DNA of 64,000 nucleotides. Origin: Escherichia coli O157:H7. Lineage in GTDB: Bacteria > Pseudomonadota > Gammaproteobacteria > Enterobacterales > Enterobacteriaceae. The notes beneath the pieces are model-generated. The model searched no databases. It saw nothing but the letters and a program-made list of their open reading frames with translations, and had not been told where the DNA came from. Each line of letters starts with the position of its first letter. Position 1 is the first letter of the stretch. This document shows positions 51,534 to 52,355 of the stretch, one piece after another. The stretch is from the NCBI RefSeq assembly GCF_013167455.1, contig NZ_CP038328.1; one strand, 5' to 3'. Made by a program: the position numbers and the translations under genes.

Positions 51534-52355
51534 ATGATGCACAGGTTGAATCTCAATGGCTATGAACCCGACCGACACCATGAAGCCGCGGTCGCATTTT
51601 GTATTCACGCCGGAACGGATGAGTTAACCAGTCCTGTACATCAGCACCGCAAAGGACAGCTGATACTGGCGCTACATGGTGCAATTACCTGTACGGTGGA
51701 AAATGCTTTGTGGATGGTGCCGCCACAATATGCGGTTTGGATACCGGGCGGGGTGGAACATAGCAATCAAGTGACAGCTAACGCTGAACTCTGTTTTCTG
51801 TTTATCGAACCCAGCGCAGTGACAATGCCGACAACATGTTACACATTGAAAATATCGCCCTTATGCCGGGAATTAATTTTAACTCTGGCAAACAGGACGA
51901 CGACTCAGCGTGCTGAGCCGATGACCCGCAGATTAATTCAGGTCCTGTTTGATGAACTCCCTCAGCAGCCACAACAACAGCTGCACCTACCCGTTTCTTC
52001 TCATCCTAAAATCCGCGCGATGGTGGAGATGATGGCGAAAGAGCCCGTCGAGTGGGGGGCATTGGGGCAATGGGCTGGCTTTTTTGCGATGAGTGAACGC
52101 AATCTTGCCCGACTGATAGTAAAAGAGACGGGGTTGAGTTTTCGCCAGTGGCGACAGCAGTTACAGCTGATTATGGCGCTTCAGGGATTAGTGAAAGGCG
52201 ATACTGTACAGAAAGTTGCTCATACGCTGGGGTATGATTCAACAACGGCCTTTATTACTATGTTTAAGAAAGGCCTGGGGCAAACGCCAGGCCGATATAT
52301 TGCGGGATTAACTACTGTTTCCCCACAATCAGCGAAACCAGACCCGTGGCAATAA
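51534..52355 (+). CDS. nimR: AraC-family transcriptional regulator NimR (YeaM)
   Basis: 273 aa; C-terminal AraC helix-turn-helix; 3' end overlaps yeaL by 44 nt. Confidence 0.85.

Follow-up and report, generated by a model that had tools for sequence, protein, structure and literature searches.

Why do the convergent genes nimR (yeaM) and yeaL of Escherichia coli O157:H7 have 44 nucleotides of coding sequence in common, and does this overlap point to regulation of one gene by the other, or only to the place where a reading frame happened to stop? The locus lies in a stretch of 64,000 nucleotides, hereafter the window, which spans ptrB to gapA in an orientation reversed with respect to K-12, and to which the annotation coordinates of the O157:H7 chromosome NZ_CM167684.1 could be applied directly (5 mismatches over 64 kb).

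Geometry and reality of the shared segment

51534..52355, plus strand: nimR (yeaM) coding sequence, 273 aa, stop TAA at 52353-55 (ORF, RefSeq)
52312..52758, minus strand: yeaL coding sequence, 148 aa, DUF441 inner-membrane protein, stop TAG at 52314-12 (ORF, RefSeq)
52312..52355, both strands: 44-nt shared segment encoding NimR aa 260-273 and YeaL aa 135-148 (codon layout)
52347: SNP, T here and C in K-12, G4/9 and ST131, missense in both genes (NimR R272W, YeaL A138T)

Both reading frames encode proteins with strong Pfam matches. NimR, known as a single-target AraC-family regulator of nimR/nimT (PMC5934670), matches AraC_binding over aa 22-149 and HTH_18 over aa 180-255 (E=1.5e-18), and YeaL matches DUF441 at aa 7-145 over the full profile (139/139, E=9.8e-44). 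A preliminary description of the window had placed a 44-nt overlap at 52312-52355, and the ORF list, the codon layout and the RefSeq/PGAP annotation all return this common span. It had also noted that revised stop positions could remove the overlap; the stops stand, the codon layout showing no in-frame stop before 52353 in nimR or before 52314 in yeaL, and they cannot be revised because they are fixed by reading frames with strong domain matches. The locus is therefore a convergent pair of overlapping protein-coding genes, i.e., two genuine coding sequences on opposite strands with 3′ nucleotides in common. The same 44-nt overlap is annotated in RefSeq/PGAP in each of the four E. coli strains that were examined (O157, K-12 with the curated entries b1789/b1790, G4/9 and ST131), the 1.5-kb locus is found at a coverage of at least 80% in 5406 of 5426 complete E. 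coli genomes, and since the overlap recurs in related genomes (these four strains and 13 Citrobacter loci in the 44-nt state) it is not a sequencing error.

The two frames stand in phase (123:132), nimR codon position 2 lying opposite yeaL position 3 and nimR position 3 opposite yeaL position 2. On the YeaL side the overlap (aa 135-148) is inside the conserved DUF441, and on the NimR side (aa 260-273) it is a 14-residue tail beyond the HTH. Edits within 52312-52355 strike two genes together, and the O157 SNP at 52347 is a concrete example of how a mutation there exacts its cost twice.

In the annotated genes of the window, stop codons occur in the antisense phase (123:132) at a density of 0.047 per codon and a run of 14 codons is free of them with a probability of ~0.51, so that an overlap of 44 nt is to be expected once an earlier nimR stop has been lost. 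Overlaps between coding sequences number three in 64 kb against ~0.8 expected from the published 58 convergent overlaps per E. coli genome (PMC2174442), an enrichment that is marginal and post hoc (Poisson P ~0.05). Lillo & Krakauer 2007 ascribed these 58 overlaps to stop-codon mutation, and reported (123:132) as the most frequent phase (46% of convergent overlaps >4 bp in E. coli), a class of 4-nt convergent overlaps that arises from complementary stop codons, and a rho-independent terminator within the partner coding sequence in 19/58 cases (PMC2174442).

Stop position of nimR across the Enterobacteriaceae

A comparative scan with one genome per species yielded 80 Enterobacteriaceae loci. 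The length of yeaL is 447 nt at every one of them (80/80), and a convergent nimR is found directly downstream in ~55, with a stop codon whose position varies from a 181-nt gap to a 45-nt overlap with yeaL. Some overlap is present in 48 of these 55 loci, and gaps of 1 and 4 nt also occur among the Enterobacteriaceae loci. The states recorded are:

45-nt overlap: Yokenella
44-nt overlap: E. coli and 13 Citrobacter loci
21-nt and 0-nt overlap: Salmonella subspecies diarizonae and arizonae
20-nt overlap: C. amalonaticus
17-nt overlap: 27 loci of Klebsiella, Raoultella, Enterobacter, Leclercia, Kluyvera, Lelliottia and others
6-nt overlap: Trabulsiella
5-nt gap: Buttiauxella
122-181-nt gaps: a few further loci

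A single codon of the O157 sequence marks the commonest of these positions:

52326..52328, plus strand: CAA, NimR Q265, at the site of the nimR stop (TAA/TGA) in most other genera, where the overlap is 17 nt

This codon faces YeaL codons 144/145, and the state of nimR goes with YeaL residue 145, which is Ile (ATN) in 27/27 loci with the 17-nt overlap and Val (GTN) at every locus with a 20-, 21-, 44- or 45-nt overlap. In the 17-nt state, the ATN of YeaL Ile145 provides the opposite strand with the T that the nimR stop requires. The 20-nt state of C. amalonaticus goes back to a change that is silent in yeaL (L143, CTG to CTT) and that produces a new nimR TAA.

Within the 44-nt state, substitutions were counted in 14 sequences. 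Sorted by yeaL codon position, variable columns are concentrated at third positions (10/15), with 2/14 at first and 0/15 at second positions, and over the overlap identity is 99% for YeaL 135-148 and 72% for the NimR tail, of which the 14 sequences have 12 different versions. The substitution pattern and the two identities argue that the shared DNA evolves as yeaL and that the NimR tail is a passenger. An origin by stop-codon mutation is further indicated by orthologs that have an earlier in-frame stop and by the poor conservation of the extension past that stop. Overlaps assigned to this origin (Fukuda 2003; Lillo & Krakauer 2007, PMC2174442) likewise consist of coding sequences on opposite strands that share their 3′ ends over <50 nt, in the phase commonest in E. 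coli, with earlier stops in orthologs and an unconserved extension; nothing essential is different at nimR/yeaL, where the toggling can be traced to YeaL I145V and to L143 CTG/CTT.

For a 17-nt allele attributed to 'E. coli E69', the best identity among the 5426 complete E. coli genomes does not exceed 91.3%, and E69 appears, from this sequence divergence, to be a divergent lineage. The nimT-nimR cassette is absent in Escherichia sp., E. whittamii, E. albertii and E. coli SCPM-O-B-8794 (loci L007 and L009-L012), where yeaO follows yeaL directly on the same strand, past 80-100 nt of unrelated sequence. At L007, fused remnants of the nimR 5′ and 3′ ends are kept instead, and the 3′ remnant still overlaps yeaL.

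Transcript ends and antisense transcription at packed junctions

52262..52293, minus strand: terminator-like hairpin plus UUUCUUAAAC, inside nimR codons, starting 19 nt past the yeaL stop (consensus scan)
52356..52500, plus strand: untranslated 3′ region of nimR, antisense through yeaL, C-rich, G-poor and unstructured

The hairpin past the yeaL stop (52272-52293, GGCCUGG-8 nt-CCAGGCC) consists of a 7-bp stem with 6 GC pairs and an 8-nt loop, folds at -26.1 kcal/mol (z=-3.3 against shuffles) and has the form of an intrinsic terminator, i.e., a GC-rich stem and then a U-tract soon after the stop codon. Set against the coding constraint of nimR, such a motif results from 42% of synonymous recodings and the folding energy is not significant (P=0.20). 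Of the orthologous loci, 22/55 have the hairpin; they group by clade, mostly in Escherichia, Citrobacter and Salmonella, and the hairpin is not retained in the Escherichia lineages that lack nimT-nimR. As evidence of selection it was rejected, the recoding null being not significant and the presence across genera (40%) equalling the null rate. Judged by its form, the hairpin may still work as the yeaL terminator, a function for which no selection is claimed. Terminators embedded in a partner coding sequence are a described class (PMC2174442), and the yeaL hairpin and U-tract likewise lie within nimR codons; at this locus, however, the NimR motif and ordinary codon usage explain the hairpin, with no need to invoke selection for dual coding.

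On the plus strand, the terminator scan found no intrinsic terminator after the nimR stop. The 150 nt that follow have a GC skew of -0.18 to -0.27 and a fold z of +0.65, and the composition of 52356..52500 is compatible with a candidate site of Rho-dependent termination for nimR. No entry for yeaL, nimR or yeaM stands among the Term-seq and Rho data tabulated by Adams et al. 2021. A search for Rfam families in or near the overlap returned none, the sole match being a sub-threshold JUMPstart (E=0.11) inside yeaL that was taken as chance.

The junction is one of several in the window at which convergent genes leave little or no space between them:

102..105: ptrB (plus)/exoX (minus), 4-nt overlap, TTAG, interlocked stop codons (annotation)
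4569..4574: pphA (plus) stop TAA against yebW (minus) stop TTA, abutting
20631..20634: rlmA (plus)/mntP (minus), 4-nt overlap, TTAA (annotation)
26855..26863: yoaE (plus)/pdeD (minus) stops, 3-nt gap
53030..53035: yoaI (plus) stop TAG against yeaK (minus) stop TTA, abutting (53032 and 53033)
15206-15235: bidirectional intrinsic terminator of htpX/yebQ, 10-12-bp stem with T-tracts on both strands, within a 45-nt gap

The pairs ptrB/exoX (102-105), rlmA/mntP (20631-20634) and pphA/yebW had been described as sharing or abutting stop codons; the annotation bears out all three, pphA ending at 4571 and yebW starting from 4572 (TAA/TTA). The yoaI/yeaK and yoaE/pdeD junctions are absent from that description, and in total 6/13 convergent pairs of the window have a gap of at most 3 nt. 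Except for the yeaL hairpin inside nimR, the terminator scan found no terminator-like motif at the packed junctions, none occurring near the yoaE/pdeD junction (26857-26861) either; packed junctions lack an intergenic terminator because there is no room between the genes. Classical intergenic terminators are found in the window only at htpX/yebQ and yeaQ/yoaJ. In overlapping bidirectional terminators (Ju et al. 2019; the preprint of Wang et al. 2022, 10.1101/2022.10.23.513370) a hairpin is likewise located at a convergent junction, and each transcript ends in the territory of the other gene. By contrast, the sole hairpin at nimR/yeaL is upstream of the nimR stop, inside the nimR coding sequence, and can serve yeaL only, so that the pair does not belong to this class, in which one hairpin past both stop codons sets the 3′ ends in either direction and of which htpX/yebQ is the classical example here.

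The packing had been taken to imply antisense transcription across the 3′ ends, which is supported by logic for the overlapping pairs and by published RNA-seq for three of the four pairs that had been named. Since an mRNA for a full protein has to include the stop codon, transcription of both members of an overlapping pair yields RNAs that are complementary across no less than the bases in common. ExcludonFinder (NAR 2025, PMC12288877, Table 1) lists yeaL-nimR, yebW-pphA and exoX-ptrB as convergent excludons, together with yeaK-yoaI, yeaO-yoaF and pdeD-yoaE, each detected in 50% or more of the 58 RNA-seq samples from MG1655 (PMC12288877). The antisense inference has thus been in print for three of the pairs named; rlmA-mntP, the fourth, is absent from that paper (PMC12288877), and for it the inference is therefore a logical one only. 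Such a listing is a statement about overlapping transcription, distinct from any regulatory effect on nimR or yeaL.

At the abutting pair formed by yoaI (plus strand, 52928-53032) and yeaK (minus strand, 53033-53536), Adams et al. 2021 mapped a Rho termination region to K-12 position 1874225(+), antisense to yoaI (~52885, minus strand, in the window), and because of this location transcription of yeaK seems to run through all of yoaI. Expression of yoaI is induced ~400-fold by PhoB (12,266 vs 28 counts; PMC10294691), and in the same data set, a single one on phosphate limitation, yeaL RNA is low, with normalised counts of 36-67 vs 12,266 for its neighbour yoaI (PMC10294691).

Several further features of the window were noticed. 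Between yebY and pphA (3640-3784) lie SraC/RyeA (minus strand) and SdsR/RyeB (plus strand), with Rfam scores of 175 and 114 bits, a fully overlapping antisense sRNA pair and a known antisense case in the window. Beside rlmA, the gene at 19450-19659 is named cspE by PGAP, while its position (yobF-cspC) and a match to the cspA thermoregulator point to cspC; the label appears to be a naming quirk of automatic annotation. On the mntP side, a PGAP 'hypothetical protein' of 40 aa (21194-21316, minus strand) has 4 nt in common with the start of mntP. A match to the Mn2+ riboswitch aptamer lies at 21329-21425 (minus strand), with 40.1 bits and E=4e-9, below the Rfam gathering score of 45; the 40-aa ORF is located between mntP and this aptamer, where the expression platform of the riboswitch would be. 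Between the mntP leader and yobD, an element of ~80 nt (21550-21631) is weakly matched on either strand by several miRNA-precursor models, which points to a long inverted repeat that is close to perfect. Finally, dgcP (yeaP, 48370-49395), intact in K-12, carries a pseudogene annotation in the O157 background, on account of an internal stop.

Origin of the overlap

The 44-nt overlap is best explained by neutral drift of the nimR stop codon into a neighbour constrained as yeaL, a reading to which we assign a probability of about 0.85. The functional part of NimR would end at the HTH, around residue 258, past which the nimR frame would enter the antisense of the codons for the last transmembrane helix of YeaL and continue until a chance stop. 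Selection on YeaL would hold the shared bases in place, and nimR stops would be made or removed by changes that leave YeaL unaltered or alter it conservatively. Overlap length would thereby jump between lineages, the outcome being 17 nt for the majority of genera and 44 nt for E. coli together with many Citrobacter. At the 4-nt and 0-nt junctions elsewhere in the window, complementary stop codons would interlock or abut in the usual way. The 3′ ends of the nimR and yeaL mRNAs are complementary whenever both genes are transcribed. Transcripts of yeaL probably end at the hairpin and U-tract within nimR codons, and those of nimR probably continue into antisense yeaL, where they would be halted by Rho or by polymerase collision. 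The nimR/yeaL overlap is accordingly of an ordinary, already catalogued kind, with nothing new in kind, and the sole small addition is a codon-level account, read from the aligned loci, of how the nimR stop toggles with YeaL codons 143 and 145. The pair illustrates how convergent overlaps arise, yeaL dictating the sequence and the length of the nimR tail flipping with silent changes in its partner, and overlap of coding sequences alone is no sign of regulation.

Two observations fit less easily with neutral drift. The convergent adjacency of nimR and yeaL is kept in ~55 of the 80 species, with overlap in 48 of 55, which could reflect a benefit of tight packing, and excludon pairs as a class have higher synteny and less co-expression in single cells than controls (PMC12288877). 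Both could also be read as signs of a selected convergent excludon, in which transcription of nimR and yeaL would interfere and give mutually exclusive expression, through polymerase collision or RNase III cleavage of the 3′ duplex, nimR being autoregulated and responsive to 2-nitroimidazole. The pair belongs to the MG1655 core excludome, such pairs as a class also have shorter spacers (PMC12288877), the arrangement is maintained in most sampled Enterobacteriaceae, and the location of the yeaL hairpin inside nimR means that the transcripts overlap whenever yeaL is transcribed. Nevertheless, we consider selection of this kind unlikely. The overlap's length is not conserved, ranging from the 181-nt gap to the 45-nt overlap; E. 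albertii, E. whittamii and other Escherichia lineages have an intact yeaL with no nimT-nimR beside it and have not kept the hairpin; and the hairpin itself is no better than the NimR amino-acid sequence predicts and is absent from most genera. Moreover, yeaL RNA is low in the one condition checked (36-67 counts), the collision-termination model being poor for weakly expressed pairs, and no functional link of NimR/NimT to YeaL is known. Compared with convergent excludons in general (Sesto 2013; PMC12288877), nimR/yeaL and five other pairs of the window are likewise in the MG1655 excludome by RNA-seq coverage, but the nimR/yeaL overlap is between coding sequences and not UTRs alone, and its assignment is by transcript overlap only, whereas the defining outcome of an excludon is opposing expression or RNase III processing.

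Neutral drift also accounts better for the tail itself than a gain of adaptive value to E. coli and Citrobacter, by which the 9-residue extension of NimR (compared with ...TTSR/Q* in other genera) would alter NimR activity. The 44-nt state is indeed common to the four inspected E. coli strains and the 13 Citrobacter loci, but the 12 tails among 14 genomes differ exactly at YeaL-silent sites, close relatives have 17-, 20-, 0- or -4-nt states, and the tail is outside the HTH domain, all of which makes such a gain very improbable. Slightly more doubtful again is the proposal that toggling of the nimR stop tunes how much of the antisense RNA over the yeaL 3′ end is translated or untranslated; were it true, Rho access or RNase III sensitivity would change, and yeaL would be nitroimidazole-responsive in E. 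coli and Citrobacter and not in Klebsiella and Enterobacter. The least credible reading, that the overlap is an annotation artefact due to a misplaced stop or an ORF that is not a gene, is effectively refuted by the codon layout, with no in-frame stops ahead of the annotated ones, by the strong full-length Pfam matches of both ORFs, by the conservation of both frames across genera and by the identical curated K-12 coordinates, and no support for it was found.
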